Shown: positions 25,616-61,563, numbered from the stretch's first letter. The stretch is DNA of 64,000 bases from an uncultured Verrucomicrobiota bacterium (GCA_964490935.1 CAZBEO010000002.1:12804-76803); one strand, 5' to 3'. Notes: generated from the letters alone by a model not told the origin. A program made the numbers and translations.

Positions 25616-26565
25616 GAACCGCCCTGCTGAATCACCCCGATGACGGCCACCGCCAGTTTCAGCGCTTCGGCGGCATGTTCACCGGACACCACCGGTTCAT
25701 CATGATGGCTCACTGCGTCCACAAAGGCACCCAATTCCAGCGCCAGCGGCTCGCCTTTTTCAATCGGCACCTCACACGGAACGATGCCCTCCGCCGTTTT
25801 GCGATACATCTCGCCCGCCTGATTTTGATAATCGAGCGAGACGTAGGCGTCTTCGTAGAAAAGGCGTATCTTGCGCATGCGCTCCGGGCTGATCCGGCTG
25901 GCCGTGATATTCGCCACGCAACCGTTGACAAACGCCAAGCGCACGTTGGCGATGTCCTCGGTGGAACTCAACACCGGCACTCCCACCGCGCGTATCTCTT
26001 TCACCGGCGAATGCACCAAATGCAGAATTGCCTCGAGATCGTGGATCATCAGGTCCAGCACCACGCTCACCTCGGTGCCACGAGGCGCTCGCCCCTCGCG
26101 TGGCGGCGGATACGATGCCAAGCGGTGCGCCTCAATGAATTTGGGCACGCCGGTCTGTTCCTCCAGAAACTGCATGACCGGATTAAACCGCTCCACATGC
26201 CCCACCTGCAGAATGCAATCCTCTTTCTGGGCAAGCGCCACCAGCTCCTCCGCCTCCTGCGTGGTGGCAGCAATCGGTTTTTCCACCAGCAGATGAATGC
26301 CACGCTCCAGCAGGTAGCCCGCGACTTCCCGATGCAGGTCCGTCGGCACCACCACACTGGCCGCTTCCACGGCCTTGGAAAATTCTTCCAATGATTGGAA
26401 AACCTTCAGCCCATGCCGATCGGCCACCACCTGCGCGGCAGCGGCATCCACGTCGTACACGCCAACCATTTCCGCCTGATCAAGCTCGGTGTAAATTCGT
26501 GCGTGATGCTGCCCAAGCGCGCCAACCCCGGCCACGCCTACTTTAATCTTTCGGTTGATCGTCAT
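25612..26565 (-). CDS. Gfo/Idh/MocA oxidoreductase (GnnA-like by position)
   Basis: GVGALGQHHAR, VEKPIA, QVGHVERFNP, DLMIHD, TASRIS; lies between lpxI and lpxB. Confidence 0.88.
   Translation of the reverse strand: MTINRKIKVGVAGVGALGQHHARIYTELDQAEMVGVYDVDAAAAQVVADRHGLKVFQSLEEFSKAVEAASVVVPTDLHREVAGYLLERGIHLLVEKPIAATTQEAEELVALAQKEDCILQVGHVERFNPVMQFLEEQTGVPKFIEAHRLASYPPPREGRAPRGTEVSVVLDLMIHDLEAILHLVHSPVKEIRAVGVPVLSSTEDIANVRLAFVNGCVANITASRISPERMRKIRLFYEDAYVSLDYQNQAGEMYRKTAEGIVPCEVPIEKGEPLALELGAFVDAVSHHDEPVVSGEHAAEALKLAVAVIGVIQQGGS
26386..26400. repeat. 15-bp palindrome TTCCAATGATTGGAA inside a CDS
   Basis: Exact match to the intergenic copies at 61477 and 61549; encodes FQSLE. Confidence 0.85.
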
Positions 26566-27406
26566 GACGGTTCACTTCCTCCTTGTTGAAAATTCGTATG
26601 GCGAGGTTTTGTCGGTCGGCCTGTTGAACCACGCGCTCTGTTTCGAGCACGATGGAACGTCCGGCCTCGAGTGCCAGCGCCGTGGCACCCGCCCGTTTCA
26701 GTATCTTCAGGGTCTTCATCCCGACCACCGGGATATCAAAGCGCATATCATGCCCAGGCTTGGCCAGCTTCACCACCACCAAGCCGCGCCCACCGAGCCG
26801 TCCGGCGCGCAGGATGGCTTTATCGGTTCCTTCAAGGGCTTCCACCGCCAGAACCACCCCGTTTTTCACCACCACGGTCTGACCTACTTCGTGATGACTT
26901 GACCAGCGTGCAATTTGCAGTCCAAGCGCAATATCTTTTTCTTCGGAAGAGGTCGGCCCACGTACCGTCAACACGCCGGGAGCGGGCATCGCGCTTTGCA
27001 TGTAAAGCCCTGCCGGCATGAGTTCCGCACCCACACCGCGCAGCTCTTCCGCCACCGCGCCAAAGATCGTGTGCGCATTCCATGCGGGCAGTGAGCGCAA
27101 AATGCCGAGCATTTTTTTATCCAGTCTGGCGTGAAACAGATTGCGCGGCGCTATCTGGCCTGCCATCACCACCTGCGAAAGGCCGTTCGCCTTCACTAGA
27201 TTCAATAGTTTCTCTAACTGCCCGACACGCAACCAGTGAGTGGCATCGGCATACGCCTCGATCGCCCGCGATGTTTCGCCCTTGAACGCAATCACCTCGA
27301 CCCGCTCGATCCCCTGCACACGGGCCGACTGCGCCAGAATGATTGGATACATTCCGCGCCCCGCTATGAGGCCAAGCCGCTCGTGGTTTGTTTTTGTTTC
27401 ATTCAT
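26543..27406 (-). CDS. lpxI: UDP-2,3-diacylglucosamine diphosphatase LpxI (DUF1009)
   Basis: GLIAGRG, VMAGQI, VGQTVVV, AVEALEGTDKAILR, DMRFDIPVVG, EAGRS. Confidence 0.94.
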   Translation of the reverse strand: MNETKTNHERLGLIAGRGMYPIILAQSARVQGIERVEVIAFKGETSRAIEAYADATHWLRVGQLEKLLNLVKANGLSQVVMAGQIAPRNLFHARLDKKMLGILRSLPAWNAHTIFGAVAEELRGVGAELMPAGLYMQSAMPAPGVLTVRGPTSSEEKDIALGLQIARWSSHHEVGQTVVVKNGVVLAVEALEGTDKAILRAGRLGGRGLVVVKLAKPGHDMRFDIPVVGMKTLKILKRAGATALALEAGRSIVLETERVVQQADRQNLAIRIFNKEEVNRHDDQPKD

Positions 27407-27893
27407 GGCTGGTCAATATCACCTGTTTCACGGCCAAGCTGAGGACGCGCGGATCGGCATCGGGCGAGTCCTTGTAACCTGCGCGGAGAATGATTGCATT
27501 GGTTCCTTGGCGAAATAATTTTTTCGGCAGTCTGGTCTCGAACCATTGGAAGCGCCCAAGATTTTCCAGTTCCCATTCCCGTACAAACTGATTGTTCACA
27601 TAGACGCCGAAGCCCTGTCTGCGCGCATGGACCACCAGCGGCATGACCTCCACCGCCAGTTGATAATCCATCGGCTCGGTGATTGGGATACTCATCTCCC
27701 CTTCCCGCTTTTCAATCCAGCGAAAGGTCGAGCCGTCACTCAGGCGTTCCGGATAACTCCAACCATAGCCCAGCTTTCCCGCGTCTGCTTCGTCGCCGGG
27801 ACGAACCGAGAGTATTTCCGCGCTCACTCCGGGCATGATCCAGGCGGCGCAGGCCATCAGCAGTCCAACCGTTAAGCATCTTCGTATATTCAT
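27399..27893 (-). CDS. Exported beta-sandwich hypothetical protein
   Basis: Signal peptide; GWSYPE, FRW, DPRVLSLAV pattern; ATGA overlap with the upstream gene. Confidence 0.65.
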   Translation of the reverse strand: MNIRRCLTVGLLMACAAWIMPGVSAEILSVRPGDEADAGKLGYGWSYPERLSDGSTFRWIEKREGEMSIPITEPMDYQLAVEVMPLVVHARRQGFGVYVNNQFVREWELENLGRFQWFETRLPKKLFRQGTNAIILRAGYKDSPDADPRVLSLAVKQVILTSHE

Positions 27894-29572
27894 GACAGCA
27901 CATGCTCCACGCCGAGGCGACGATACTCCTCCTCGACGCCCCGGATTTCTTCTTCCGTTTGTTCTGCATCCCATCCCAATTCAGTGGCCATCAGCGCCGC
28001 TGCGGCGGCGACCGCCTCGTGCCCGGGATAGCGGAAAGAGCCGAGGCCGGTTCGACGAAAAACCACATCCGTTAAGCGGCAGGCCTGTTCGTTCCGCACC
28101 GCGAAAATCACGTCCGCGCCAAGCACGGCGTCGGCTTTGTTCAGTCGTTCGGCCCAGTCCGGATTTTCCGAACAGAGCCCGAGTACATCGAGGGCCTGCG
28201 TGCCATATTGCTGCGCATGATAATCCAGCACGCGATCATCAAACGTCAGCCCCTCGAGCCGCGCATCGATCCAGCCTGGCGTCACCAGGTCTTCTCCGCC
28301 ATCCACCCTCAGATTTTTTCCCGGCTGATACGGCCTGCCCAGCATACGCGCTACCCGCCGCGCCACCTTTCCCGCCACCTGAATGCCCGTGGTGTATTTT
28401 ACGCCCTTGATCAGCAACATGCCGTCGATGCCAGCCAGTTGACGGTAGTCCAGCAGCTCGGTGTCCTTGGCTGGATCCGAGGGATGTGCCATCGTGCGTG
28501 AAGGACGCGCCGGCAGGATACCCGCGTGGGCAAACGTCACATCGTTCAACGCCAATTCTGCGGGTGGATACATTGCATTAATCTCATCCAGATACGCCTG
28601 AATTTCCTCCGTCGTCAATCCACACGTGCCCGGAGCGCCTCGGAAGGGAGCGTACATGGTTCCAATGATCGTACCCTCGCGCCACGGCGCAAAAAAGTAA
28701 TTCCGCTTGCCCCGCTGGAGCACCGCATCGGCATCCAGATACTCCGTGATGGACTCTAACCCCACGCCGTAGGAACCGAAATAACGCCGCCGCACGAGAA
28801 TATTATAGGCCCGCGTCCAGGGCCAGTTGTGATTCATCGATCCGAAACAACCCGGCAGCAGTTCATTCAACCAACCTCCGGTGGCATTGATCGTTACACG
28901 CGCACGCACCTCGACCTGCCCACCGGTCAGCGCATCACGCACCTCGGCCCCGATGATGCGCGAACCATCCAGAATCAGTCGCGATGCCTTGGCATAATTG
29001 CACGTCACGGCACCGAGACGCTGCGCGGTCATTAGAAAGGCGAGCGTGAAGCGTTCCGTATTTTCCGCGAAGCCATCGTGCCACACACCCGCGCCGGTTC
29101 CGAGTGCGCTCAGTCCTTCGGCCACCTCGTGAAGAAAGTCGCGTCCTTTGAGTGACCCATGCGGCAGGTGACGCGAAGGGTCCACCCCGAAGTTGCGGTC
29201 AAAGCTGATCACATCGTTCGCCATCATCGCCGCCAGCAAGGCCGCCTTGCTCCGCAGAAAAAAACCGGAAGTGGGTACGAGGAAGCGGGCCGGATGCGTC
29301 AGGTGCGGCAGATGAGTCAGGCTCATTCTGCGGGCCGTAATGGAGTCGCGCATTCGGAGCAGGTCCAACTGCTGTAAATAACGCAACCCGCCGTGAATAA
29401 TTTTCTGACTGTTAGCCGAAGCCGCTCCGCCGTAATCGCCCTGCTCCACCAGCGCGACGGAGTACCCCTGACGGGCCAAGGCCCACGAGGCGGTTGCCCC
29501 ATGGATGCCTCCACCAATCACCAATACGTCAAACGACTGATCGGCCAAGGTTTTCAATCTGTTCTCATTCAT
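27890..29572 (-). CDS. glpD: FAD-dependent glycerol-3-phosphate dehydrogenase/oxidase family protein
   Basis: IGGGIHG, SANSQKIIHGGLRYL, INATGGW, KYTT, DVVFRRTGLG. Confidence 0.8.
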   Translation of the reverse strand: MNENRLKTLADQSFDVLVIGGGIHGATASWALARQGYSVALVEQGDYGGAASANSQKIIHGGLRYLQQLDLLRMRDSITARRMSLTHLPHLTHPARFLVPTSGFFLRSKAALLAAMMANDVISFDRNFGVDPSRHLPHGSLKGRDFLHEVAEGLSALGTGAGVWHDGFAENTERFTLAFLMTAQRLGAVTCNYAKASRLILDGSRIIGAEVRDALTGGQVEVRARVTINATGGWLNELLPGCFGSMNHNWPWTRAYNILVRRRYFGSYGVGLESITEYLDADAVLQRGKRNYFFAPWREGTIIGTMYAPFRGAPGTCGLTTEEIQAYLDEINAMYPPAELALNDVTFAHAGILPARPSRTMAHPSDPAKDTELLDYRQLAGIDGMLLIKGVKYTTGIQVAGKVARRVARMLGRPYQPGKNLRVDGGEDLVTPGWIDARLEGLTFDDRVLDYHAQQYGTQALDVLGLCSENPDWAERLNKADAVLGADVIFAVRNEQACRLTDVVFRRTGLGSFRYPGHEAVAAAAALMATELGWDAEQTEEEIRGVEEEYRRLGVEHVLS

Positions 29573-30744
29573 TCCGCTGATTCCTCTGAAAGATCAATGA
29601 ACATATCAAATGAATAGGCTGATAAAAGGGTATTTTCGTAGGCTTTTCGCGAGTGACGTTTCAGCGCAAGCAGGCAGGCCTGCTCCCCGAGCAACGCCCC
29701 TTTTTTCGGGTGTCGAAGCAGGTTTTCCAGTGCATCCGTCCAGGCCTCGGGTTCCGCAGCGGTAAGGACGGCGCATTCCGCATTCAGCACCTGCGTGTGC
29801 GACGGAATATCCGTGGCCACGATAGGTTTCCCAGCCAGCATATAAGAGTAGATTTTGAGCGGGGTGTTTCCTCCCTTGATGCGCGGAGAGAGCAGCACAT
29901 CCGCTTGGGCCAGATATTGCTGCAACCGGCCCACCGGACGCGGCCCGGTGAATGTCACGCGGTCACGCAGATCGAGCCGTTCTGCCTCGCTTCGGTAATG
30001 CTTCACATCTCGTTCCCGTCCACCGATCACCGCCAGATGCCACGGATACTCCGTGGAGAGATGTGCGAATGCCGCAAGCAGCAAATCCATCCCCTGATAA
30101 TGCTCCAGATTGCCCACATACAGAAAAAGCGGCCCCATCACCTTCAGCAGAGCACGCAGATTCTCAATCGGTGCATCCGCCCCTTCGCTCTCCATCGCAC
30201 GGTCGTGCAGCACGCATACTCTGCCTCGCGGCTGATACGCCTCGACCTTCTCCCGCAAATAGTCGCACACCGGCAGAATCAAATCCGCCGAACGTACCGC
30301 CCACCCTTCGAAACGCGAGAAAAGAGGTGCCAACAGACGAAGACCCCGCCACTTCTCCATCAACTGGTCCGGCATCGAGGAATCCATGTCGTACACGAGC
30401 TTCTGATTTCGCGCGCGCAGGAGAATGGCCGGAAAGACCGCCTCTTCTACCGCATGCACCACATCATACCGTTCCGCACGAAGCAGCGAACGCATACGCA
30501 GCGCCAGAAAAAAATCACAAATCAGTTTCTTCCAGGAAAAACCAATGGGAATTTCGCCGATCCAGCGCGGAGCATGACAACGAATGATTCGAAGTCCAGC
30601 CTCTTCCACATCCCTACCGCCCGGAAAGCAAAGCAGGTCCACCCGATTACCCGCACGACACAGCGTCTCCGCAACCCAGCGAACGGCAATCGGCGTTCCC
30701 CGTTCCTGATAAAATGGCTGAGGGGCGACAAGTAGGATTCTCAT
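29569..30744 (-). CDS. Glycosyltransferase family 4
   Basis: APQPFYQERGTPI, YVGNLEHYQG, GNTPLKIYSYMLAGKPIVATDI. Confidence 0.92.
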   Translation of the reverse strand: MRILLVAPQPFYQERGTPIAVRWVAETLCRAGNRVDLLCFPGGRDVEEAGLRIIRCHAPRWIGEIPIGFSWKKLICDFFLALRMRSLLRAERYDVVHAVEEAVFPAILLRARNQKLVYDMDSSMPDQLMEKWRGLRLLAPLFSRFEGWAVRSADLILPVCDYLREKVEAYQPRGRVCVLHDRAMESEGADAPIENLRALLKVMGPLFLYVGNLEHYQGMDLLLAAFAHLSTEYPWHLAVIGGRERDVKHYRSEAERLDLRDRVTFTGPRPVGRLQQYLAQADVLLSPRIKGGNTPLKIYSYMLAGKPIVATDIPSHTQVLNAECAVLTAAEPEAWTDALENLLRHPKKGALLGEQACLLALKRHSRKAYENTLLSAYSFDMFIDLSEESAE

Positions 30745-30749
30745 GTCAC

Positions 30750-31175
30750 TCAGTGAAGTCCTGACCGCATCGTAATGACCAGTTGATTCTCGTCCGTCTC
30801 CCGGCGACGAAAGTAATGAGCTGATTTGGTCAGCTTGCGCACGACGTGCGCACCCAATTGCTGTTCTTCCAAGTCCTCCAGCGCCTCTTCTTCCGATTGG
30901 ATGGGAAGGATGGGATTGTAGGCCGTGCCATGCCAGGAGATGTCTAGAACAATTTCCCGGCCCCGCAGAGTGATAAACATACGGATCGCATGTTTCTTTT
31001 CCTTGTCATCCACTTGACAAATCACGCTTGAAAGCACCTCTTCCAGCACCAAGCTGGCCCGATAAGAAATTGAGGTGGAAATATAATTTACATCCAGAAA
31101 CCGGGTCACTTCCGCTTTCACGTAAATGAGTTCCTTCAGCTCTTTGGTGATGGTGAGTTTGATTTCTTTCTGCAT
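30750..31175 (-). CDS. RsbW-like anti-sigma factor / HATPase_c_2 protein (degenerate)
   Basis: LVLEEVLSSVI, YNP, LGAHVVRKL, NQLVITM. The upstream ORF extension runs through a repeat and is rejected. Confidence 0.75.
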   Translation of the reverse strand: MQKEIKLTITKELKELIYVKAEVTRFLDVNYISTSISYRASLVLEEVLSSVICQVDDKEKKHAIRMFITLRGREIVLDISWHGTAYNPILPIQSEEEALEDLEEQQLGAHVVRKLTKSAHYFRRRETDENQLVITMRSGLH

Positions 31176-31283
31176 TCCAAACCATTTGGTATTTTTTTCA
31201 CAGATAACAGGGCGAACGATACCCGCGCACAGGAAATCTATCAATAGTGTTTGCGTATTATTTCGCATTTTATATCTTGGCGC

Positions 31284-31380
31284 CCAGCAGGCTGTCAGGC
31301 TTTTGGCCCGCCATCCTGCTGGTAAACAACAGCGGGTACGCTGTTGTGCCTTGGCCTCATCGAATTGGACCGATATACTG
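31284..31380 (-). repeat. 97-bp double-hairpin element (full copy)
   Basis: Reverse complement aligns without gaps to 34483-34579. Confidence 0.9.
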
Positions 31381-31409
31381 AACACACAGATTCTTCATAA
31401 AGGAATATC

Positions 31410-33143: not shown

Positions 33144-33189
33144 CTTTTTTCCATGCGTTGGTGCCACCGACAAAAGTCCGCGCAAGTTA

Positions 33190-33283
33190 TCACCCCGGAT
33201 GGGGTGAAGGCGTATAGCCCAGAGTCGGGAGACCCTGGGTTTCTGATTCTCCAACATCCCAAGCACCCCGGTGGGGCTTGGGA
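33190..33283. repeat. Cluster of three hairpins after the ArnT gene (REP-like or terminator)
   Basis: TCACCCC-GGAT-GGGGTGA; CCCAG...CTGGG; TCCCAAGC...GCTTGGGA. Confidence 0.45.
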
Positions 33284-33426
33284 GCCAACGCCCTATTCTT
33301 TCAGATTGACACCCACCCCTCCCATATCTAACCTGCACAATTGTATGGAGTGAAGCAGATGACGTGCCTATAGAGCCACAGGGCTAAAAAGCTATTTATT
33401 ATCGTGCAACTGCGGAGGGAGTTCAT

Positions 33427-44772: not shown

Positions 44773-46395
44773 TCAGACATTCCGCTGTGTTCGTATCATT
44801 CGTAAAAAGCGATCCAGCAACCCGGATTTTCCGAGCGGGCGTGGAGAGATTCCATTCGCATCCTTCATCCGTTCCAGTTCCGACTGGAGGTCCGCCGTCC
44901 GTTCGGCGGCCAACTCGGCAAGTCGTTCGGGTATTTCCGGCTTCATGCCAAGCAAGAAGGTGAAGGCGTCGGCATCCAGCTCGATTAATTCGCATTCCTC
45001 CACAACCCGCACGGTGGCGGTTCGAGGCAACCCGGTGAGCAAACTCATTTCGCCCAGCAGCGCACCCGGCTTGATTTCAAAGACATGGCGACTCGCTGTG
45101 CTGTCACGGCTTTCCACCTCACCGCTCAGCAAACCGCGCACCACAATGTAACAACGGTCGCCCTCTTCACGCTGATGAAACAACACCTCGCCCGTGGTAT
45201 AAAAGACGCGGCGCGCATGACAGGCCAACGCCACATACTCCTCACGGCCCAGCAGGCCGGCCCCATTCCCTCCGGTCAGCAGATCCCTGGAAAACCGGCT
45301 CCGCTCCAGATCATCCGCCATACGAAGAACCTCTTTTTCCTCCGGCGGTTCCCGACGCTGACGATATACCACGGCCATAAAATCATTCAGCAGCTTGTCG
45401 CTCATCGGGAAGGGAATTTCGATGCCCTGGCGCTTGAAGCGGTACCAAATCATTCGCCCCACTTCTCCATCCAATTCCTTGCGATCGTAATATCGCCGGG
45501 TCCAATAGCGCACCATATAATTGATGCCGAAATCTTTGTATTCCGTGATGAAGGCACGCGGCGCGGGTTCGTCCAACACATCGGGCACCGCCTTGGCCGC
45601 TTCAATCAATTCCCGAATCACGTCGCCCGGCGCATCGGAATAACTCGCACCCACCTCAAAGCGGTGCCGACGCAAGGTGTTCGGCCACGACATGTGATTC
45701 AGCACGGCCGAAGAAACGGTACTGTTCGGCACAATCATCACATGCCCGTCATGCGTCCTAAGCCGGGTTTCCCGCCAGTTTGTTTCAATCACTTCGCCTT
45801 CGATTTCCTGCACCCGAATCCAGTCGCCTGGCACCAGCGAACGCACCAGATGCAGCGACATCCCGCCGAGCAGATTGCCCAGCACCCCCTGCAAGGCAAA
45901 ACCGATGACCGCCGTAACCAGCGCCGTCGAGGCCAGCAGCGGTGCAATATCAACCCCCGCCACTTCCTTGAGCACCAGAAAAGCCGCCAGCAGCGCAATC
46001 ACCGTACGCACAATGGAAACAAGGAGAGATGGAACCGGAAACGCCTTTCCGCGAAACCAGAAAAAGGACACGCCGATTCCTTCCAACGCACGCATCCCCA
46101 GGATCACCCACCAAAAAGTCTGCCAAGCCTGGAAGTGCAGACGGCAATGCTCCATCCACGCGGCGCACGCCCCTGGAAGATGAGCGGCCAGCCAAGCCGC
46201 AGCGTAAGAAAAGACCAGCACCAAGGCTGGCAGCGACACCGGATACAAAAAACCCCGAAACCAAACTTTCTTCCGAACATTCGCAGAGAGCCGTTCGCCT
46301 GATTTCAAACGTATCCGACGCGAAATAAATAGTGCCAGCGAAACCAGCACAATCGCCAGCGCGCCCTCCACCAGATAAAACGTCATACTATTCAT
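44773..46395 (-). CDS. MscS-family channel with a C-terminal cyclic-nucleotide-binding domain
   Basis: GFALQGVLGN, PGDWI, NWRET, VPNS, PFP; CNBD with LFHQREEGD and GEMSLLTGLPRTATV. Confidence 0.92.
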   Translation of the reverse strand: MNSMTFYLVEGALAIVLVSLALFISRRIRLKSGERLSANVRKKVWFRGFLYPVSLPALVLVFSYAAAWLAAHLPGACAAWMEHCRLHFQAWQTFWWVILGMRALEGIGVSFFWFRGKAFPVPSLLVSIVRTVIALLAAFLVLKEVAGVDIAPLLASTALVTAVIGFALQGVLGNLLGGMSLHLVRSLVPGDWIRVQEIEGEVIETNWRETRLRTHDGHVMIVPNSTVSSAVLNHMSWPNTLRRHRFEVGASYSDAPGDVIRELIEAAKAVPDVLDEPAPRAFITEYKDFGINYMVRYWTRRYYDRKELDGEVGRMIWYRFKRQGIEIPFPMSDKLLNDFMAVVYRQRREPPEEKEVLRMADDLERSRFSRDLLTGGNGAGLLGREEYVALACHARRVFYTTGEVLFHQREEGDRCYIVVRGLLSGEVESRDSTASRHVFEIKPGALLGEMSLLTGLPRTATVRVVEECELIELDADAFTFLLGMKPEIPERLAELAAERTADLQSELERMKDANGISPRPLGKSGLLDRFLRMIRTQRNV

Positions 46396-47249
46396 CGCGT
46401 CACCTTCTCCGCTCCTTCATACCGTTCGCCCTGCCGACCCAACACCGCCCCCGTGCATTCCTTCTGCATCTGCCGTTCCAATTCGATCAGCGCGGCATCA
46501 TCCAATTCCGGGGCATGATGAATGATCACGAGCTGCTGAATGCCCGTCTCTTTCGCAATCGCCACCCCATCCTGCCAAGTGCTGTGTCCCCAGTTCACAT
46601 GCGCCGGATAATTCTCCGGCGTAAAATGTCCATCAAAGGCCATCCAGTTTACGGGATTCGGCGTATGGCACAAATGCAAAAAGGCCTCGCGCTCCTCCCT
46701 TGTGGAAAGCGACCACTCGATGTCGGTCGCGACGAGCAGGCTGTGCCCCGTCGCTGGCTCATCCACGCGGTACGCCACGCACCCGCCCGGATGATGCACC
46801 GGACACCAGCGAATCTCCAATCCGCCACACCTCAGCACGCCATCCCGAGAATACGCCCCCAACGCCTCGAACGTCAGTTCGCCACGTAACATTTCAATTT
46901 GTTGAGGCCAAAATGGGGCCGCCATGATTTGTGCGAAGACCTCCTTCACGTCCTGGCCGTTCAATGACGGCCCGACAATGCGCAGCGGAGCACCCGGACG
47001 GTATATCCTCGGAAACGCCGGAAATCCCGCAAGATGATCCAGATGATAATGTGTCATCAACGCCAGCATCGGTTTATCGGATTGGCTCAGGCGGGCGCGC
47101 ATGCCATTGAGACCCGATCCGAAATCGATCAGGACCTCTTCGCCACCGCATCCTTCAATATAGAAGCAGGTGGTATCGCCTCCGAACTCGCGAAAGGCCG
47201 GATTCGTTACCACCGCCGTACCACGCACGCCGCCCAATGTGATTTGCAT
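46392..47249 (-). CDS. MBL-fold metallo-hydrolase (putative cyclic nucleotide phosphodiesterase)
   Basis: LGGVRGT, FGGDTTC, DFGSG, THYHLDH, HHPGG, WGHS, HHAP. Confidence 0.85.
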   Translation of the reverse strand: MQITLGGVRGTAVVTNPAFREFGGDTTCFYIEGCGGEEVLIDFGSGLNGMRARLSQSDKPMLALMTHYHLDHLAGFPAFPRIYRPGAPLRIVGPSLNGQDVKEVFAQIMAAPFWPQQIEMLRGELTFEALGAYSRDGVLRCGGLEIRWCPVHHPGGCVAYRVDEPATGHSLLVATDIEWSLSTREEREAFLHLCHTPNPVNWMAFDGHFTPENYPAHVNWGHSTWQDGVAIAKETGIQQLVIIHHAPELDDAALIELERQMQKECTGAVLGRQGERYEGAEKVTR

Positions 47250-49376
47250 TTACTTCTCCGTCAGATTCCACACACCGTCCCAATCGGCACCGTTCAATGC
47301 CTCGCGGCAGCGCGCTAGGTACTTCGCGGCTAGCGGATCTTTTTCCAATGATTGGAACTTTTCCACCGCATTTTTCCAATCATTGGAAAAAACGAACCCG
47401 AGCCCTTCTTCGAAGGTCCGCACCCAGTCCGGGCGCTCGTTCGCATCCAGCGTCAGTAGTTCATACACGCTCACCGGGGACTTGCGCCCGACCACCCGGA
47501 TTTTTCCGATTTGCCGCGCACCGAGTTGCCCCTCCACCGCCGACCAAGTTTCACCGGAAACCATACTATACGTTCCGAAGGCTTTGTTCGCGCCCTCGAG
47601 GCGCGAGGCCAAGTTGGCCGCATCGCCCAGTACCGTATAATCGAAACGCTCTTTCGATCCCATATTGCCCACCACCACCTCGCCCGTATGCATACCGATC
47701 CGCGCGTAGAGTGGCGAGCCGTAGCGCTCCGCGAGATCATCGCGCAGCTCTTCGAGCCGCTTGGCGCAACGCAGCGCCGCGCGGCATCCACGCAGGGCGT
47801 GATCGTGCTGATCCATCGGCGCATTCCAAAAAGCGATAATGGCATCGCCCTCGTATTTATCCAGCGTGCCGCCCTCATCAAAAATAATATCGGTCATTTC
47901 CGAAAGATACTCATTCAGAAAGGAGGTCAGTTCCTGTGGGTTCATCCGTTCTGAAATCGTGGAAAATCCCTGGATGTCGGAAAAGAAAATCGTGAGCACC
48001 TTGCGCTCGCCGCCGAGCTTCAAGCGCCCCGGATCGTTGAGAATATTTTCAATCACATCACGACTCAAATAGTGCTGAAAGGCGCGCTTGATAAACTGTT
48101 TCTGTCGCCCCTCCGTAGCATAATTCACCAGCACCGCCGAGGTCAGCGCCAACAGCAGCGACAGCACCTGCACCACCAGCGGATACCAGAAACCCAGCGG
48201 ATAAAACAGCAACGCCACCCCCACGCCGGGAAGCAGAAACAACACGTAAAAAAGCGCACTGCGCCACGCCGACCGACTGAACAAGCCCGCGAGCGCCGCC
48301 AGCAGGGAAAGCAACAGCACCACCAACACCACTGCATGGCGCGGAACATCCCGCAGCGCATCCGCATCGAGCAGATTGTCGAGTAGCGTGGCGTGAATGA
48401 ACACACCCGGGGAAACGCGCGAAACCGGTGTGGCCCGCTGATCCATCAACCCCGGCGCGCTGAATCCAAACAGGACGTGACAATCCTTAAACACCTTTGG
48501 ATCCAGTTCAGCCTCCATCCCCGCCTGCAAATTCATTTCCGACAGAATCACCGCCGCCGCACGAATTCGCTCATAGGGATCATCCACTCCCCGGTAATGC
48601 AGCAGCACATCGCCATGGGCATCCAGCGGAACGCTCACCGGCCCGAGTTTCAGGCGTTGTGCCTCCAGGCTGGTTTCCCACGCATCCGGATGCGTGAGCA
48701 GATACGCCGCCACCCCGAGCGAAGGCACGTAGCGCCCGTCAAACCGATTCAGCGGAGAGGCGCGACGGAACACACCGTCGGAATCCGGCATATCGCGTAC
48801 ATTGCCCAACACTGCGGCGTTGGTGGCCACTTCGGGAATCGGAAACGTGGCTCGACTCTTGTTCAAACGTCGCTCCCGCCGGGGCGGAAGGTCCGACACC
48901 TGCACCTTCCAGTCTTGTTGCAAAATGTCCGTCGGCCAGGTCTCGCTCCCGCCCGAACGATCACCGAGAAACACCGCCGCCACCAAGTTGGTGGTGGTCC
49001 GCATCGCCTCTCCAAGCGCTTCGTCGTCGCTCACCGAATAGGCCGAAGGCTCGGTATAGAGTACGTCAAACGACACGCTTGCCGCGCCAGCCCGCTGCAT
49101 GAATTGAAGCAGTGGAACATACATCTCACGCGGCCAGGGCCACGACACGCTTAATTCTTTCGCCGCCCAATCCAGCGACGCCTGATCCAGCAGCACCAAT
49201 TTAATTTTCGCCGCCGACTCCGAGTTGCGCGCGAACAGTCGTACACGCCACGCCCAGGTCACATTCTCGACCGCATCCAGCGCCCCGAAAAACCAGAGCG
49301 ACAGACTGATCAGCGCCGCACCGCCTCCGCAGAGCACCCCGTACAGCCACTTTTTTTTGGTCTCTGCCTTCATCAT
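47250..49376 (-). CDS. CHASE2-domain class III adenylate cyclase
   Basis: FSDIQGFSTISE, DKYEGDAI, GMHTGEVVVGN, DYTVLGDAANLASRLE; CHASE2 with DGVFRR and PGVFIHA. Confidence 0.93.
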   Translation of the reverse strand: MMKAETKKKWLYGVLCGGGAALISLSLWFFGALDAVENVTWAWRVRLFARNSESAAKIKLVLLDQASLDWAAKELSVSWPWPREMYVPLLQFMQRAGAASVSFDVLYTEPSAYSVSDDEALGEAMRTTTNLVAAVFLGDRSGGSETWPTDILQQDWKVQVSDLPPRRERRLNKSRATFPIPEVATNAAVLGNVRDMPDSDGVFRRASPLNRFDGRYVPSLGVAAYLLTHPDAWETSLEAQRLKLGPVSVPLDAHGDVLLHYRGVDDPYERIRAAAVILSEMNLQAGMEAELDPKVFKDCHVLFGFSAPGLMDQRATPVSRVSPGVFIHATLLDNLLDADALRDVPRHAVVLVVLLLSLLAALAGLFSRSAWRSALFYVLFLLPGVGVALLFYPLGFWYPLVVQVLSLLLALTSAVLVNYATEGRQKQFIKRAFQHYLSRDVIENILNDPGRLKLGGERKVLTIFFSDIQGFSTISERMNPQELTSFLNEYLSEMTDIIFDEGGTLDKYEGDAIIAFWNAPMDQHDHALRGCRAALRCAKRLEELRDDLAERYGSPLYARIGMHTGEVVVGNMGSKERFDYTVLGDAANLASRLEGANKAFGTYSMVSGETWSAVEGQLGARQIGKIRVVGRKSPVSVYELLTLDANERPDWVRTFEEGLGFVFSNDWKNAVEKFQSLEKDPLAAKYLARCREALNGADWDGVWNLTEK
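47343..47388. repeat. Two TTCCAATNATTGGAA palindromes inside the cyclase 3' end
   Basis: 47343-47357 TTCCAATGATTGGAA and 47374-47388 TTCCAATCATTGGAA; encode FSNDWK and FQSLEK. Confidence 0.85.
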
Positions 49377-54144: not shown

Positions 54145-54152
54145 AAATCGGT

Positions 54153-54719: not shown

Positions 54720-54775
54720 TTTGATTCTCCTTTCGTTCGTTCTTTCAATCCTTCATGGACCCACCATGAAAACAC

Positions 54776-55567: not shown

Positions 55568-55677
55568 AAATCCGTCCTCCTTTTGACGTGAAAATATATC
55601 GCTTCACGCCGCGCAAATCAATCTTTCCAAGGAGTATTGTTTAGTTCCGCCCTACCTATCGCGAGGCGGTCTTGGTC

Positions 55678-56313
55678 TTATTGCTCTTCAGGACCCAGTT
55701 CGCCGATGCGGCGCATGATGTGGTCTCCGGCCAAGGCGTATACTTCTTTCCCGTCGCCGAGTTTCTTGATCTCTTCGGGTTGGACCGGCTTGCCGAAGAT
55801 CACCCGGATTTTACGTGGCCGGATGAAACGCGCACCGCGCGGATACGCCTCAAAGCTACCTTCGATTCGCGTGGGCACCACCGGTACGCCCGCCTTGACA
55901 ATCATAAATCCGATCCCTGCCTTGGCCTGCTGAAGTTGTCCGTCTTCCGAACGGGTTCCTTCGGGGAAAAGCGCCACGACTTCTCCCTGCGCCAGATGAC
56001 CGAGTACCGTGCGCATCGCCTTCAAATCGCCTTTGGTGCGGTCGAGCGGAATCGTCAGCAGGTGATCATACACCCAGTGCGCCAGCTGGCTCTTCCGCAG
56101 CGTGGCGCGGGCCACAAACCGGACAATCCGACGTGCCGACACGCCGGTGCCGATCAGCGGCGGGTCCAGAAAGCTCGCATGATTAGCGGCAATGATGCAG
56201 CCGCCTTTTTCGGGTATATTTCCGCGCCCGATATATTCAATCCGAAACCAGACCGCCGCCCACAGACGTACCGAATAAACCGCGAACCAGTAAAATAGAT
56301 GCAGATTTTTCAT
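55678..56313 (-). CDS. plsC: 1-acyl-sn-glycerol-3-phosphate acyltransferase
   Basis: NHASFLD, FPEGTRS, VPVVP. Confidence 0.9.
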   Translation of the reverse strand: MKNLHLFYWFAVYSVRLWAAVWFRIEYIGRGNIPEKGGCIIAANHASFLDPPLIGTGVSARRIVRFVARATLRKSQLAHWVYDHLLTIPLDRTKGDLKAMRTVLGHLAQGEVVALFPEGTRSEDGQLQQAKAGIGFMIVKAGVPVVPTRIEGSFEAYPRGARFIRPRKIRVIFGKPVQPEEIKKLGDGKEVYALAGDHIMRRIGELGPEEQ

Positions 56314-56314
56314 T

Positions 56315-56995
56315 TCATCCGTTAGAGCTGGACACTTCCGACACAATCAGTTTGACCACATCATCAATGCCCATGTGGGTGGTGTTGACCACTTTGGCAC
56401 CCAAGGCGATTTGCAGCGGTGCCGTGGCGCGGGTGGTATCCTTGTGATCCCGCCGAGCCAGCGAATCTTTCACGCTTTGCACGCAAGCGGTGCTCTCCGA
56501 GACCTGCAATTCCTTAAAACGCCGCCGCGCGCGCTCTTCCGGATCCGCATCCAGATAGTACTTCCAATTCGTTTCGGGAAAAACCACCGACCCAATATCA
56601 CGGCCTTCCATCACAATCGAACCGAAGTCCCGCATATCACGCAGGCGTGCCACGATAAAGCTGCGCACCTCGGGAATGGCCGCCACATCCGAAACCCGCT
56701 CGCGCACCGCCTCCTTGCGAATGAAGTCACGCGGGTCCACGCCGTCAATGTGAAAAAAGAGTGTGCGCTCTTCGATGAAAAAATCCCACGTCGAGTCGTT
56801 CATCATCCGAACGACCGCCTCGGCATCGCGTACATCCACACCGCTATGCACGGCCTTCCACGTCATCCCGCGATAGAGCGAGCCCGAGTCCACATAAATA
56901 AATGCCAACGCCTTGGCCACCTGACGCGATACCGTCGATTTACCCGAAGCCGACGGCCCGTCAATGGCGATTACCAACCCTTCATTCGGTTTCAT
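56315..56995 (-). CDS. cmk: Cytidylate kinase
   Basis: IAIDGPSASGKST, DSGSLYR, MEGRDIGSVVFP, RDHKD. Confidence 0.96.
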   Translation of the reverse strand: MKPNEGLVIAIDGPSASGKSTVSRQVAKALAFIYVDSGSLYRGMTWKAVHSGVDVRDAEAVVRMMNDSTWDFFIEERTLFFHIDGVDPRDFIRKEAVRERVSDVAAIPEVRSFIVARLRDMRDFGSIVMEGRDIGSVVFPETNWKYYLDADPEERARRRFKELQVSESTACVQSVKDSLARRDHKDTTRATAPLQIALGAKVVNTTHMGIDDVVKLIVSEVSSSNG

Positions 56996-58310
56996 GCACC
57001 TGCGCTCCCAATCGTTTTAAATCATTCCAGAATGCCGGGTACGAGGTACTCACGCATTCCACGTTTCTAAGCGTCACCGGTTTCGCCGCGAACAACGCCA
57101 TAATCGCCATCGACATCGCGATGCGATGGTCGCCATGCGCATCGAGTTCCACCCCGCCGCGAATCGGTCCGCCACCCTCGATCACCATGCCATCCGGCGT
57201 TTCGCTCACCTGCGCGCCCATAGCCGTCAGATGCCGCACCATCACCGCAATCCGATCCGACTCCTTGAACCGCAACTCGCTGGCATCTCGAATCACCGTC
57301 CGCCCGGTCGCCAGCACGCCAGCCACCGCCAGAATCGGCAACTCATCTATCACAGACGGGATTTCCGGTCCACCTATTTCCACCCCTTTGAGCGTGCCGC
57401 CTTCCACCGTCAGATCGCCCATCGGCTCCTCGCCCGCACCGGCGCGCGGCGTACTCTCCACCGAAGCGCCCATTCGCCGCAGTACCGAAAGAATGGCCTC
57501 GCGTCCGGGATTCAATCCCACCCCCTCGATCGTCAGCCGAAGCCCCGGCGTACAGGCCGCCGCCACCAGACAAAACGCCGCCGACGAAATATCCCCCGGA
57601 ATGCGAATTGAGAAGCCCCGCAAGTCCGGGCCTTTCGGGCCGAAGCCCTCCAATTCCAAACGGCCTTCCGCCATTTCCAACGGCACCCCCAGCGTACGAA
57701 AAAGCCGTTCGGTATGATCACGGCTTTTTGCCGGTTCGAGCAGCACCGTCCGCCCCTCCGCAAAGAGACCGGCCAGCAACACGCAGGATTTCACCTGAGC
57801 CGACGGCATCGGCATTCGGTACGTGATTCCCTTGAGCCCGCCCCCGCGAATGGTCATCGGCGCGGTGCCTTTTTCGCCCGTCAGCCGCACCGTCGCGCCC
57901 ATCTGTTCCAGCGGCTCCTGAATGCGCCGCATGGGACGCGAGCAGAGCGAGGCATCACCCGTCAGCGTGACCGAGAGCGGGAATCCCGCTAGCAATCCGG
58001 CCAGCAGGCGAGTGCCCGTACCCGAATTGCCCAGGTCCAGCGGGCTGTCCGGCTGAACCAGTGCGTTGCCCGTGCCTTCGATGATCAGTGTGTCGCCGGC
58101 ATCGCACACGCGCGCGCCGAGTCGTTCCATCGCCCGCAGGGTATTCAGACAATCCTCTCCGCGCAGATAGCCGGTCACCACCGATTCGCCACGCGCCAGA
58201 CCAGCCAGCAACGCCACCCGCTGCGAGACGCTTTTATCTCCCGGAACCGTCATGCGATAGGCTCCACACGTCAAACCGGGCTCCACCCGTATGGCCTGCG
58301 GATTATTCAT
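56982..58310 (-). CDS. aroA: 3-phosphoshikimate 1-carboxyvinyltransferase
   Basis: PGDKSVSQR, GNSGTGTR, SAQVKS, SRDHTE, IDELP, KESDR, DHRIAM. Confidence 0.97.
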   Translation of the reverse strand: MNNPQAIRVEPGLTCGAYRMTVPGDKSVSQRVALLAGLARGESVVTGYLRGEDCLNTLRAMERLGARVCDAGDTLIIEGTGNALVQPDSPLDLGNSGTGTRLLAGLLAGFPLSVTLTGDASLCSRPMRRIQEPLEQMGATVRLTGEKGTAPMTIRGGGLKGITYRMPMPSAQVKSCVLLAGLFAEGRTVLLEPAKSRDHTERLFRTLGVPLEMAEGRLELEGFGPKGPDLRGFSIRIPGDISSAAFCLVAAACTPGLRLTIEGVGLNPGREAILSVLRRMGASVESTPRAGAGEEPMGDLTVEGGTLKGVEIGGPEIPSVIDELPILAVAGVLATGRTVIRDASELRFKESDRIAVMVRHLTAMGAQVSETPDGMVIEGGGPIRGGVELDAHGDHRIAMSMAIMALFAAKPVTLRNVECVSTSYPAFWNDLKRLGAQVHETE

Positions 58311-59193
58311 CGCCGCTTTCGGCCTCCTGCTCCGGTGCTAGTTCACGCCGAAAGTTTCCCGCCTGGCGCAAGTACCGCGCCAGCGCGTCCATATCGTTCC
58401 GCTCGAGCAACCCGCGCAGCCGCTCCAGTTCCGATTGAACCGCCTTCACTTCATCCAGCACGTTGGAACGGTTGCTCTCGAAAACATCCTTCCACATCGC
58501 GGGTGAGCCGCAGGCCAGGCGCGTCATGCTGCGATAGCCCGGCCCGCAGAAATCCGCTTCTGGAGCCCCACCATCCGGACGCGACACCGCCACGGCCAAC
58601 GCCGAGGAAAGCAGATGCGGCAAATGACTCGTCCGTGCCAAAACCCGATCGTGCACTTCCGGGCTCATCACCGAGACCCGGCAACCAACAAAATTCCAGA
58701 GTGTAGCCACCCGCAGCACCGCCATTTCCGGGGTGGTCCCGCTTTCGGTCAAGATACAGCGGGCACCCGCATAGAGATCTGAACGCGCGGCTTCCACCCC
58801 GCTTTTCTCCGACCCGGCCACCGGATGGCTTCCCACAAACGAAACCTTCGATCCATCCAAGATCGTTTCCACTTCCGCATGAAGCCAGGCCTTGGTGCTG
58901 CCCACGTCCGTAATCACCGCCCCCGGCTTCAGTGCCCCGCGCACCTCGCGTATCAGCGATGGAATGGAAAGCACGGGTACACACACCACCACCAAATCCG
59001 CATCCGTTACCGCCTCGGACGCATCCGTTACCGCCTGATCACACAGGCCGTGTTCCAGCGCATGGCGTACCGTTTCAGCACGTCGAGCATATCCCTGCAC
59101 ACAGCCGCCGTAGCCTCGCGCTTTCAGGGCCAGACCCAGCGAGCCGCCCATCAATCCGAGTCCCAATAGGACTATCTTTTTTTCTGCGTGCAT
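58303..59193 (-). CDS. tyrA: Prephenate/arogenate dehydrogenase
   Basis: [35 protein letters not shown]. Confidence 0.92.
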
Positions 59194-59226
59194 GATTCCA
59201 CCTTCGGCCAAAGGCTTCCGCCCTGC

Positions 59227-60258
59227 CTACATCGTTTTACCCACCGCGCCTGCAATCGCCCGCATCTGTTCCATCATCAGTCGGAACTTCGCGGGAACCA
59301 GCGACTGCGATCCATCCGAGAACGCCTCTTCCGGGCGCGGATGCACTTCCACCATCACTCCATCGGCCCCCGCCGCCACCGCCGCGCACGCCATCGGGCG
59401 CACCAGATCCCAGTGCCCCGTACCGTGACTCGGGTCCACAATCACCGGCAAATGAGTCTCGCGGTTCAGCACCGGCACGGCACTCAAATCCAGCGTATTG
59501 CGCGTCATCGGCTCAAACGTCCGAATGCCGCGCTCACACAGAATCACCCGCTGATTGCCCTGACTCATCACATACTCCGCGCTCATCAGCAGTTCCTGAA
59601 TCGTACTCGAAAGCCCGCGCTTGATCATCACCGGCTTGTCGCAACGTCCCACCACCTTCAGCAAATTAAAATTCTGCATATTGCGCGCACCGATCTGAAT
59701 GATGTCGCACATCTCCTCAATCATCTCCACATCCCGCGTGTCCATCACTTCCGACACAATATACAACCCGTACTTCTCACGTGCCTCCGCCAGAATCGAA
59801 AGCCCCTTCACGCCCATGCCCTGAAAAGCATACGGCGAGGTTCGCGGCTTGAACGCACCCGCGCGAAGTACCGTCGCACCCGCCTCTTTCACGCACTGTG
59901 CCACTTCCAAGAGGCCTTCACGACTCTCCACCGCGCACGGACCCGCCATCACCACCAGCTCATTCCCGCCGATGCGTACCGGCGCTGCCCCGTTCAGCGA
60001 CGGCAGTTCAATCACGGTACGGGCCGGATGAAACGCCGCATTCGCCAGCTTGTACGGCTTGACCACGTTCATCGTGTAATCCACACCCGGAAACACATCC
60101 ACCGGTTTCACGCGAAGAATCGACTCATTGCCGATCACACCGATAATCGAGCGCTCCTCGCCCCGACTCAGGCTCGGCGTCAGCCCCCATTCCCGTATCT
60201 TTTCCAGGATGTGCTCGATCTGCGCCTCGGTGGCGTCCCGCTTCAATACAATAATCAT
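59227..60258 (-). CDS. aroF: DAHP synthase type I-beta with an N-terminal regulatory domain
   Basis: [40 protein letters not shown]. Confidence 0.95.
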
Positions 60259-61364
60259 GACAAAATAACCCCTTCCTGCATCAATTCCTTCATCGCATGA
60301 ATCAATCGTTTATTTTCATGCGCCGTACCCACCGTCACCCGAATCCATTCCGGCATCGCATAACCCGCCACCGGACGCACAATCACCTTCTTGCGCTGCA
60401 ACGCCTCAAACACGCGCCGCCCCTCGCCCACCTTCACCAGCATGAAATTCGCACGCGATGGAACAATCTCCAGCTTCATCTCCCCGAAACTCTGCTCCAG
60501 AAAAGCCAGTCCTTCCTTCACCATGAGCCGCGTCTTTTCCACATGCGCCTCATCATCCAGAGCCGCCAGTGCTGCTATCTGTCCCATTGCATTCACATTA
60601 AACGGCTGGCGCACCCGGTTCAACAACTCGATCTCCCGCTTTCCGGCAATGCCATAGCCCACCCGCAGGCCCGCCAAGCCATACGCCTTCGAAAACGTAC
60701 GCAGCACATACACATGCGGACGCGATCGCACATACTGAATCAGATCCGGCTGATCCTCAGGCTCCATCATCTCGATATACGCCTCGTCAAACACCACGGC
60801 CACATGATCCGGCACCCGCCGCATGAATCCATCGATCTCCTCCGGCTCAAGAACCGTACCCGTCGGATTGTTCGGATTCGCAATAAACACAATACGCGTC
60901 TGCTCATCAATCGCCTCGAGCATCGCATCCAGATCATGCCGATACGCCTTCATCGGCACCGCCTTCACACCTGCCTGACGCGCCGCCGCCGCCAGCCGAT
61001 ACACCACAAACGCACGATCCGCCATCACGATATTCTTGCCCTTGCTCAGATAAAGCGTCGCGATCATTTCCAGCAGCTCATTGCTGCCATTGCCCACGAT
61101 CACTTCCTCCAGATGAACCCGCAGCCGCGTCGCCAATTTTTCCCGCAGATAATGTGAACCCCCGTCCGGATAAAAATGCATCTTTTCCGCCGCCTGCTTC
61201 ATCGCCTTCACCGCCAGCGGAGAAGGCCCAAGCGAATTCTCGTTCGACGCCAACTTGCAGATTTCATCCACACAATCAAAACCCAGTTCCCGCGCCACCT
61301 CCTCGATCGGTTTGCCCGGCTCATAATATCCCAAATCCGCAATCCACTCATTTTCTATCTGCAT
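60255..61364 (-). CDS. hisC: Histidinol-phosphate/aromatic aminotransferase
   Basis: YEPGK, KLASNEN, NPNNPTG, DEAY, RTFSKAYGLAGLRVG. Confidence 0.93.
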   Translation of the reverse strand: MQIENEWIADLGYYEPGKPIEEVARELGFDCVDEICKLASNENSLGPSPLAVKAMKQAAEKMHFYPDGGSHYLREKLATRLRVHLEEVIVGNGSNELLEMIATLYLSKGKNIVMADRAFVVYRLAAAARQAGVKAVPMKAYRHDLDAMLEAIDEQTRIVFIANPNNPTGTVLEPEEIDGFMRRVPDHVAVVFDEAYIEMMEPEDQPDLIQYVRSRPHVYVLRTFSKAYGLAGLRVGYGIAGKREIELLNRVRQPFNVNAMGQIAALAALDDEAHVEKTRLMVKEGLAFLEQSFGEMKLEIVPSRANFMLVKVGEGRRVFEALQRKKVIVRPVAGYAMPEWIRVTVGTAHENKRLIHAMKELMQEGVILS

Positions 61365-61476
61365 GATGTCATCCCTCGTTTAAACGTGAAAAATCGACCG
61401 CTTTTTACACTGTATCCCCCAACGTTGTCTGTAAAATATGACGATCAAAAGCGCCGTCCCGGCCCATGATCTATTT

Positions 61477-61563
61477 TTCCAATGATTGGAAAAGTGCCCT
61501 GAGGGCACCTTCAACTTTTCCAATGGTTGGAAAAATCGTCAAAAAAGTTTCCAATGATTGGAA
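61477..61563. repeat. Three TTCCAATGRTTGGAA palindromes in the divergent intergenic region
   Basis: Copies at 61477-61491, 61518-61532 and 61549-61563, plus GTGCCC-TGA-GGGCAC between the first two. Confidence 0.9.

Follow-up and report, generated by a model that had tools for sequence, protein, structure and literature searches.

The 64,000-nucleotide stretch of DNA analysed here, referred to as the window, originates from an uncultured Verrucomicrobiota bacterium (GCA_964490935.1 CAZBEO010000002.1:12804-76803) and contains a 15-bp palindrome, TTCCAATSATTGGAA, for which a first-pass annotation had listed five exact copies and one with a single mismatch. All six were recovered: the exact 15-mer occurs at positions 26386, 47343, 47374, 61477 and 61549, and a version in which A9 is replaced by G, TTCCAATGGTTGGAA, at position 61518. 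When the search pattern TTCCAATNATTGGAA was employed, the same five positions matched without mismatch and 61518 was off by one. The palindrome is real and is the core of a repeated 19-base site: T/A flanks extend it to a 19-bp palindrome of 9-1-9 layout, TTTTCCAAT-S-ATTGGAAAA. This extension, and a register of 31 or 41 bp between neighbouring copies of the window, had been overlooked before. The six sites (core coordinates) are located as follows.

26386..26400: single site, TTCCAATGATTGGAA, inside a Gfo/Idh/MocA gene (25612-26565, minus strand) that lies between lpxI and lpxB
47343..47357: distal site of the cyclase doublet, read as FQSLE, with C as the centre base on the coding strand
47374..47388: proximal site of the cyclase doublet, read as (F)SNDWK in another reading frame, 31 bp from the 47343 site
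61477..61491: site 1 of a three-site intergenic array
61518..61532: site 2 of this array, the variant TTCCAATGGTTGGAA, 41 bp from site 1
61549..61563: site 3 of this array, 31 bp from site 2

On the coding strand, the single site reads GTT TTC CAA TCA TTG GAA, corresponding to V F Q S L E. The doublet lies within the final 45 codons of a CHASE2-adenylate/guanylate cyclase gene (47250-49376, minus strand), 93-138 nt upstream of the start of the abutting metallo-beta-lactamase (MBL)-fold gene (46392-47249, minus strand). The frames of the three coding copies, FQSLE and FSNDWK, are those reported previously. The three-site array occupies the divergent intergenic region 61365-61622, with an aminotransferase-aroF-tyrA-aroA-cmk operon to its left (60255-61364 and downstream, minus strand; products aminotransferase, DAHP synthase, prephenate dehydrogenase, EPSP synthase and cytidylate kinase) and a thioredoxin-like gene to its right (61623-62666, plus strand).

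Such copies are not expected by chance, in agreement with what had been claimed. Dinucleotide shuffles of the window (52-62% G+C; n = 100) gave an average of 0.00 exact copies and of 0.29 sites with up to two mismatches (largest count 3), and 0 sites were expected at zero or one mismatch from an order-3 Markov control. At 3, 4 and 5 mismatches, the window counts of 3, 19 and 77 equal the expectation of 2.7, 19.5 and 107, and the window copies therefore form an all-or-none class. In the called coding sequences of the window there are three sites, when 200 codon-preserving shuffles averaged 0.275 and never gave more than 1.

A scan for the 19-mer in one genome per species (185,579 species, 596 Gb) returned at least 116 stretches, with 80 records listed. 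Most of the 80 listed records were named Kiritimatiellae, Kiritimatiellales, Pontiellaceae, Pontiella or Tichowtungia, and the remaining ones were metagenome-assembled genomes (MAGs) labelled Verrucomicrobiota, Lentisphaerae, Spartobacteria or 'uncultured bacterium', many of them with arrays. Two single matches among those listed were unrelated, being AT-rich contigs of Methylophilaceae and Flavobacteriales (35% and 42% G+C), which accords with about 4 chance matches to a 19-mer estimated for 596 Gb. Named hosts among the matches listed span two classes of the phylum Kiritimatiellota (NCBI taxonomy), and the sources of the matches listed include rumen, soda-lake sediment, marine sand, lakes and groundwater; the window DNA itself matches salt-lake metagenomes, and the closest named relatives of its proteins are Kiritimatiellae MAGs. 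Since the host loci have 52% to 70% G+C, this AT-rich word is held against composition. Among the matches listed, the 19-mer is almost confined to Kiritimatiellota, and it is vastly over-represented there, so that the previous description as a lineage-specific highly iterated palindrome holds. A phage origin was rejected, as the 19-mer is present in only two IMG/VR contigs and the 15-mer alone occurs there as single chance matches. A literature search found no publication with the 15-mer and none describing such a motif in Kiritimatiellota, and the motif appears to be previously undescribed.

Site density is low, with 6 sites at 3 loci in the 64 kb of the window and 7 site loci in about 81 kb of four related loci that were ascertained by their proteins (L253-L255 and L257), as compared to about one copy per gene or kb for a repeat with the hyper-abundance of highly iterated palindrome 1 (HIP1). 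A metagenome scan with EPSP synthase yielded 6 loci, none carrying the site and none clearly syntenic. Motif 'dialects' in motif-free relatives were also considered and rejected, since only local repeats, probably unrelated ones, were found. One Kiritimatiellota locus without the 19-mer (L248) contains, at about 4557-4582 and 7563-7650, tandem CCAATGA/CCAATGT units, that is (CCAATGA)n inverted clusters, which form a long inverted repeat and have the word CCAAT/ATTGG in common with the motif. Another (L250) has a local family, GAATTTCAC, with GAATTTCACGAATTTCACGAA units and the inverse TTCGTGAAATTCGTG at two intergenic places 700 bp apart (about 15040-15130 and 15748-15790), unrelated to the motif.

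The anatomy of the site was derived from 838 kb of motif-bearing loci, which were ascertained by the motif itself, related genomes being read in pieces no longer than about 22 kb. The core was matched perfectly by 246 sites, with one mismatch by 144 and with two by 79, when 0, 0.3 and 4 were expected, respectively. At 3 mismatches, 65 sites were counted and 30 expected, an about twofold excess, and counts at 4-5 mismatches were at background, with no long degenerate tail. The two half-sites are conserved equally, the centre base is G or C in 99% of the sites and the only common variants are transitions beside the centre, about 20% of sites having TGG and about 9% having CGA. The information content is very high, at about 30 bits. 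Arrays of one to seven sites were found 96, 52, 17, 20, 8, 14 and 2 times, respectively, with even numbers favoured. For neighbouring sites with at most one core mismatch, spacings of 31 bp (n = 91), 30 bp (n = 35), 32 bp (n = 25) and 22 bp (n = 50) predominated, which corresponds to peaks at 31 (30-32) and 22 (20-23) bp with almost nothing in between. Further spacings are 42, 52 (= 22 + 30) and 62-63 bp, and all spacings are whole numbers of helical turns. The spacers between the 19-bp sites measure 3 or 12 bp; they vary among units, yet they bear traces of tandem duplication of 31-, 52- or 62-bp units. Arrays are direct and homogeneous, with an identical centre base in 78-86% of neighbouring pairs. 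In rumen genomes, they are mosaics of a doublet module (a TGA site followed at 22 bp by a TGG site, the TGG variant being a fixed member) and of single sites 31 bp apart, with partly conserved spacers. A different lineage has arrays in which G-centre sites follow a single C-centre site, at 31 bp.

Inside genes, sites are found in all three frames, encoding FQSLE, SN(D/H)WK and P(M/I)IGK, and these peptides are encoded almost only by motif DNA (for example in 21 of 26 cases for FQSLE and in 20 of 20 for PIIGK) despite the GC-rich genomes. From the frame giving TGA, the G-centre form is nearly missing (2 vs 19), the 2 exceptions being TGG variants. In-gene doublets are spaced 21, 22, 31, 32 or 42 bp apart with their paired sites in different frames. 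Because the spacing is kept across frames, neither a periodicity of the protein nor common descent from a duplicated unit can account for the register.

When the two coding loci of the window were aligned with 120 homologues each, no indel was found at either. At the position of the Gfo site, 120 orthologues read F-x-S-[LMI]-[ED] without gaps, and FQSLE is present only in the clade of the window gene. The cyclase doublet lies in a conserved C-terminal segment, where distant homologues have approximately CY..G.W.EAL..FE.LPDDP. These alignments show that the coding copies arose by substitution and not by insertion, which excludes, for these copies, the 'selfish insert' shaping protein sequence that the first-pass annotation had considered. 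An in-frame insertion adding residues, as is characteristic of Rickettsia palindromic elements, was found at neither locus. Nor do orthologues from unrelated taxa share the peptides for reasons of protein function, which had been named as a possible objection, since distant homologues have other residues at the same, gap-free positions.

Conservation of the coding copies is deep. In relatives with 94% and 87% protein identity the Gfo 19-mer is identical and adjacent codons have synonymous changes; in a third relative (87%) the peptide is FKSLE and the 15-mer site is absent, with five differences. In the cyclase, no orthologue down to 60% identity departs from FSNDWK or FQSLE, and the residues between and around these peptides vary. 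Three of these orthologues (L253, L254 and L255, with protein identities of 75%, 61% and 60% among them) retain both sites at the DNA level with the same 31-bp spacing. Across the four genomes, the two 19-mers show 89-97% identity, with 83-100% at third codon positions; the corresponding values for the 193 coding bases that flank the doublet are 52-67% and 32-46%, the latter being saturated. In L253, a third in-frame site (12042-12056) follows 19 bp after the doublet, where D-P-x-A-A-x-Y has become F-P-T-V-G-K-Y, and the array is therefore growing within coding sequence.

The intergenic array upstream of the aminotransferase operon is kept in relatives with 88% (L256) and 66% (L257) protein identity. 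As in neisserial intergenic mosaic elements (NIMEs), such arrays are syntenic and variable in copy number: site number and spacing drift from three sites in the window (31 + 41 bp) to at least two in L256 (42 bp) and four in L257 (31, 33 and 19 bp). The relatives have different divergent neighbour genes, and a conserved promoter-like block is found at distances of between 41 and about 125 nt from the array. Upstream of the operon, on the minus strand, blocks TTTTACAGACAA (61425-61436) and AGTGTAAAAAGCGGTCGATTTTTCACG (61385-61411) are conserved in L256 and L257, and the DNA between them and the array is not; these blocks are probably the promoter or leader of the operon, and a scan with the sigma-70 consensus gave no match in them. 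A GC-rich 7-1-7 palindrome, GTGCCCTGAGGGCAC, is nested at 61494-61508 in the 41-bp spacer between the 61477 and 61518 sites. The equivalent spot of L256 (about 35-49) has GTGCGCTCAGCGCAC, in which both arms are changed and the palindrome is kept; such an element might be bound by a second protein or form a small hairpin.

The relation of the arrays to neighbouring genes was also studied, using genes called with a codon-usage model trained on the loci, so that the gene calls are approximate. Arrays of at least two sites occur in 11%, 12%, 6% and 10.5% of the ++, --, -+ and +- intergenic regions, respectively. With 10.5% for convergent (+-) and 6% for divergent (-+) regions, the former are as array-rich as others and the latter are not enriched. 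Four convergent cases were checked with Pfam: both flanks matched in two of them (ilvD vs SASA esterase; glycosyltransferase vs Fic), and one flank matched in the other two (PEPCK and YidC, respectively). The next start codon lies 3 to 366 nt from the array, a gene start is found within about 350 bp for 72 of 112 arrays, and doublets are also located mid-way in long genes. The flanking genes have no functional theme, as 84 of them match 112 Pfam families, none of which is found in more than two genes, and an all-against-all comparison of 692 open reading frames (ORFs) from 117 loci revealed no recurrent neighbour, transposase or regulator. The centre base is uncorrelated with GC skew and with gene direction, which led us to reject an orientation signal of the KOPS or Chi type.

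Some frames of the arrays are stop-free, and long ORFs run through them (for example in L121, L128, L139, L155, L220 and L221). Public gene calls can be extended N-terminally through arrays, as may be the case for a 399-residue form of the aminotransferase (protein P0244), and such extensions produce spurious FQSLE, SNDWK or PMIGK repeats in predicted proteins. Rumen metatranscriptome contigs aligned to L155 showed only assembly breaks at the array and were uninformative on transcription. The sole RNA gene of the window is a tRNA-Pro(GGG) (11981-12057), about 240 bp downstream of which an ORF of 88 residues with a GIY-YIG nuclease domain is found (12296-12562). With a GC skew that is negative over its whole length (cumulative -4.5) and a majority of genes on the minus strand, the window therefore lies inside one replichore, without origin or terminus.

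Taken as a kind, the motif is a lineage-wide iterated word or interspersed palindromic repeat, like HIP1, the DNA uptake sequences (DUS) and uptake signal sequences (USS), the repetitive extragenic palindromic (REP) sequences and the NIMEs, the function of which is mostly unresolved. It differs from them in its length, its phylum-level constancy, its helical register and the depth of its conservation in genes. The combination of about 30 bits, phylum-wide conservation, quantised helical spacing and strong purifying selection on in-gene copies is unusual.

The interpretation that we favour, giving it an even chance, is that the 19-bp sites are bound by a conserved, dimeric and cooperatively binding protein with an architectural or global role. 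A dimeric binder of double-stranded DNA is suggested by the symmetry of the site, the near-exact copies, the phasing, which includes independently arisen in-gene doublets, the even numbers of sites and the purifying selection at the DNA level. The motif, its taxonomic range, exactness and phasing, its origin by substitution and its deep conservation are established by the sequence data; binding by a protein, cooperativity and the function of the complex are deduced from them. Judging from the sequence pattern, a putative sequence-specific protein of Kiritimatiellota would occupy each site as a dimer, and dimers on neighbouring sites would contact one another along one face of the helix, because the sites are 2, 3, 4 or 5 turns apart. 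Cooperative binding would then give rise to nucleoprotein complexes of higher order, with about one such locus in every 10-20 kb. It is the DNA sequence itself on which selection acts to maintain the sites; between genes they multiply through tandem duplication of 31-, 52- or 62-bp units, and within genes point substitutions write them wherever the protein tolerates FQSLE, SN(D/H)WK or P(M/I)IGK. Possible roles would be the organisation or anchoring of the nucleoid, or an activity like that of Lrp, Noc or SlmA. Since the sites are placed irrespective of gene function and of the direction of transcription, also in the middle of genes, an architectural or global role is likelier than gene-specific control. 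Among the functions proposed in the first-pass annotation, a site of a putative nucleoid protein is the best supported, on account of helical phasing and DNA-level purifying selection; a partition site in the narrow sense is unlikely, given copies at many scattered loci.

The sites of Noc (NBS), SlmA (SBS) and ParB (parS) are 12-16-bp palindromes scattered round the chromosome, many of them in genes, that give rise to architectural higher-order complexes (PMC8429893, PMC4331003). The motif likewise consists of scattered palindromic sites, including sites inside genes. In contrast to the odd 9-1-9 layout and the arrays described here, those sites are mostly single, number tens per genome and have an even-length symmetry.

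Several observations weigh against a dedicated binding protein. No DNA-binding gene is linked to the arrays and no binder was found. Zero sites are present in 84 kb from four other Kiritimatiellota genomes (loci obtained via Gfo orthologues of 68-76% identity), which makes the occurrence of the system patchy, or its density much lower in some lineages. Near-exact copies fit copy-and-paste or molecular drive as well, and natural sites of regulators or nucleoid proteins are usually degenerate. The stereotyped mosaic arrays of rumen genomes, with partly conserved spacers, are what a family of dispersed repeats would produce. Tandem duplication can also pass on a constant spacing within an array, and only independent doublets argue for a constraint on phasing.

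A bolder form of the cooperative-protein interpretation, which we regard as doubtful while still worth stating, would be a dedicated chromosome-architecture system of Kiritimatiellota in which one conserved protein reads the 19-bp palindrome at hundreds of loci as phased arrays, a bacterial counterpart of insulator or anchor elements. Selection for the sites would be strong enough to write them into coding sequence and to keep them there over deep divergence.

It is also conceivable, though unlikely, that the arrays belong with the mosaic repeats prone to recombination, of the NIME/dRS3 type or of the type of bacterial interspersed mosaic elements (BIMEs). As substrates or targets of a recombinase or simply of homologous recombination, they would persist and grow by favouring the exchange of adjacent DNA or by being selfish. 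REP sequences and BIMEs of enterobacteria and pseudomonads comprise hundreds of palindromic units per genome in mosaic tandem arrays that grow by duplication. They are strictly extragenic, imperfect, species-specific, of alternating orientation and linked to REP-associated tyrosine transposases (RAYTs), whereas the sites studied here are near-perfect, have the same orientation and also occur, as singles and doublets, inside Pfam-supported genes. No RAYT-type recurrent neighbour was detected among the 692 ORFs of the 117 loci or the 84 flanking genes. A miniature inverted-repeat transposable element, a transposon end or a RAYT-linked REP was judged unlikely, as there is no recurrent neighbour gene at these loci and no insertion in genes. 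In Neisseria, dRS3 units of the form ATTCCC-N8-GGGAAT make up the intergenic NIME arrays, which are syntenic, vary in copy number and are tied to recombination and cassette exchange (PMC1797815). The motif resembles them in that short inverted-repeat units are iterated in syntenic arrays of variable copy number and spacing (PMC1797815), and the near-exact sites and the modular, polar rumen arrays with partly conserved spacers would fit as well. NIMEs differ in being genus-specific, absent from genes and built with 50-150-bp RS families between the units, compared to 3- or 12-bp spacers, a phylum-wide range and coding copies in the present case.

Two cases may connect the arrays with exchange of DNA. 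In L142, inverted copies of about 170 bp (1826-1960 and 4802-4933), each consisting of CCCCTGCACAATCTGCTGGC and a four-site array, flank a 2.9-kb cassette that encodes a D12-class adenine methyltransferase and a DUF6996/DUF6997/DUF7226 protein and is probably a restriction-modification module; no other methyltransferase was seen. When L156 (1-4593) was compared to L184 (2221-6886), identity stepped from 76-94% to 96-100% exactly at a two-site array, with a 66-bp indel alongside, which looks like a recombination breakpoint at the array. What recombination leaves unexplained by copy-and-paste are the substitution-born coding copies and their strong purifying selection across 60% protein identity; moreover, no transposase or recombinase recurs near arrays, the spacers are far from RS units in size, and the evidence for recombination itself amounts to one cassette and one breakpoint. 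The 15-mer TGCACAATCTGCTRG also recurs exactly beside the array in L147, and by eye a shorter word related to it, CACAATC, was seen near the arrays of L149, L160 and L172.

Less probable than recombination is that the site is the operator of an oligomerising global transcription factor, either activator or repressor, with arrays tuning adjacent promoters. Palindromic sites clustered at distances of 2 or 3 helical turns are known from Lrp-type regulators, whose oligomers bind them cooperatively and wrap the DNA (PMC2995911), and NrdR boxes come as a pair of 16-bp palindromes whose centres are 31-32 bp apart (PMC13584703). The motif is similar in that palindromic sites lie 2 or 3 turns apart on one face, the 22- and 31-bp peaks, which independent in-gene doublets share, agreeing with Lrp spacing (PMC2995911, PMC13584703); the Lrp and NrdR sites are degenerate and belong to promoters of defined regulons, whereas the motif sites are near-exact and blind to gene function and orientation. 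A gene start within about 350 bp of 72 of the 112 arrays would suit an operator, as would the location of the window array in a divergent promoter region, its conserved position upstream of an aromatic amino-acid operon and the 93-138 nt between the cyclase doublet and a conserved downstream gene. The 7-1-7 / 9-1-9 layout, moreover, recalls Fur- and DtxR-family boxes. What speaks against an operator is that arrays are equally frequent in convergent regions and unenriched in divergent ones, that doublets occur in the middle of long genes, that distances vary widely both to the start codon (3-366 nt) and to the promoter-like block (41-125 nt), that the diverse flanking genes do not form a functionally coherent regulon and that the sites themselves are not sigma-70 promoters. 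A Fur/Zur/PerR-like regulon (7-1-7, AAT-N-ATT) was rejected because the flanking genes have no common function. A sigma-70 promoter in the 31-bp register (TTGGAA-N17-TCCAAT) was rejected, too: its -10 element lacks the A at position 2, promoter scans were empty at both window loci and arrays are also convergent.

Improbable to almost the same degree, and marginally more so, is a molecular drive of the uptake-sequence or HIP1 kind, by which mutations toward the motif would be fixed genome-wide without local function, the motif being favoured in DNA uptake, in repair or in processes linked to methylation. DUS of Neisseria and USS of Pasteurellaceae are exact lineage-wide words that have been substituted into genes in tolerant frames. 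They differ from the motif in being non-palindromic, in occurring about once per kb and in standing single or as inverted terminator pairs, without helically phased direct arrays; the motif has a low density, direct arrays and no terminator architecture. HIP1 of cyanobacteria, GCGATCGC, is found in and between genes, is conserved at orthologous positions and has been proposed to have a role in nucleoid structure (PMC5861425, PMC4390886). Like it, the motif is a phylum-level palindrome in and between ORFs that is conserved between genomes beyond neutral expectation, with selection at the DNA level and no evident role of peptide, RNA or regulation. HIP1 differs in measuring 8 bp, in occurring about once per gene, in being connected with orphan methyltransferases and in lacking phased arrays, compared to 19 bp, about one locus per 10-20 kb and phasing here. 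Drive would account for the substitutions by which sites came to be written into genes, at peptide-tolerant positions of all three frames, for exact copies with a slight excess at 3 mismatches only and for retention at orthologous positions, as for HIP1 (PMC5861425). It leaves the helical register of independent doublets and the arrays of 4-7 copies unaccounted for, the density (3 loci in the 64 kb of the window) is 10-20 times below that of DUS, USS or HIP1, and the information in at least 14 specified positions exceeds by far what is read by a methyltransferase or by any known uptake receptor.

Finally, an RNA element, in which neighbouring copies would pair into long REP-like hairpins that stabilise, process or terminate transcripts, is very improbable: predicted folding energies of -24.7 kcal/mol (z = -6.1) for the cyclase doublet and of -36.7 and -40.9 kcal/mol for the intergenic array, and the presence of arrays between convergent genes, are in its favour, but the same centre base in 78-86% of adjacent pairs keeps a central mismatch, so that perfect pairing is not selected, and there is no GC-rich stem with a U-run, no Rfam match at any site and no consistent orientation of arrays relative to genes; the spacing is quantised in helical turns, for which a hairpin loop has no need, and arrays are found in divergent promoter regions as well. 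Selection for perfect hairpins between neighbouring sites was likewise rejected on the basis of the centre-base identity of pairs.

For Kiritimatiellota, the motif provides a clean signature by which metagenomic contigs can be assigned to the phylum, and it explains the odd conserved peptides FQSLE, SNDWK and PMIGK as well as false ORF extensions in annotations. If the link with recombination at the arrays of L142 and L156/L184 holds, arrays would mark hotspots of gene exchange. The spacing of the sites points to a cooperative DNA-binding protein and makes the question of binding testable. If such a protein exists and acts as proposed, the palindrome would represent a new kind of nucleoid-organising system, the sites of which can be read straight from the sequence.

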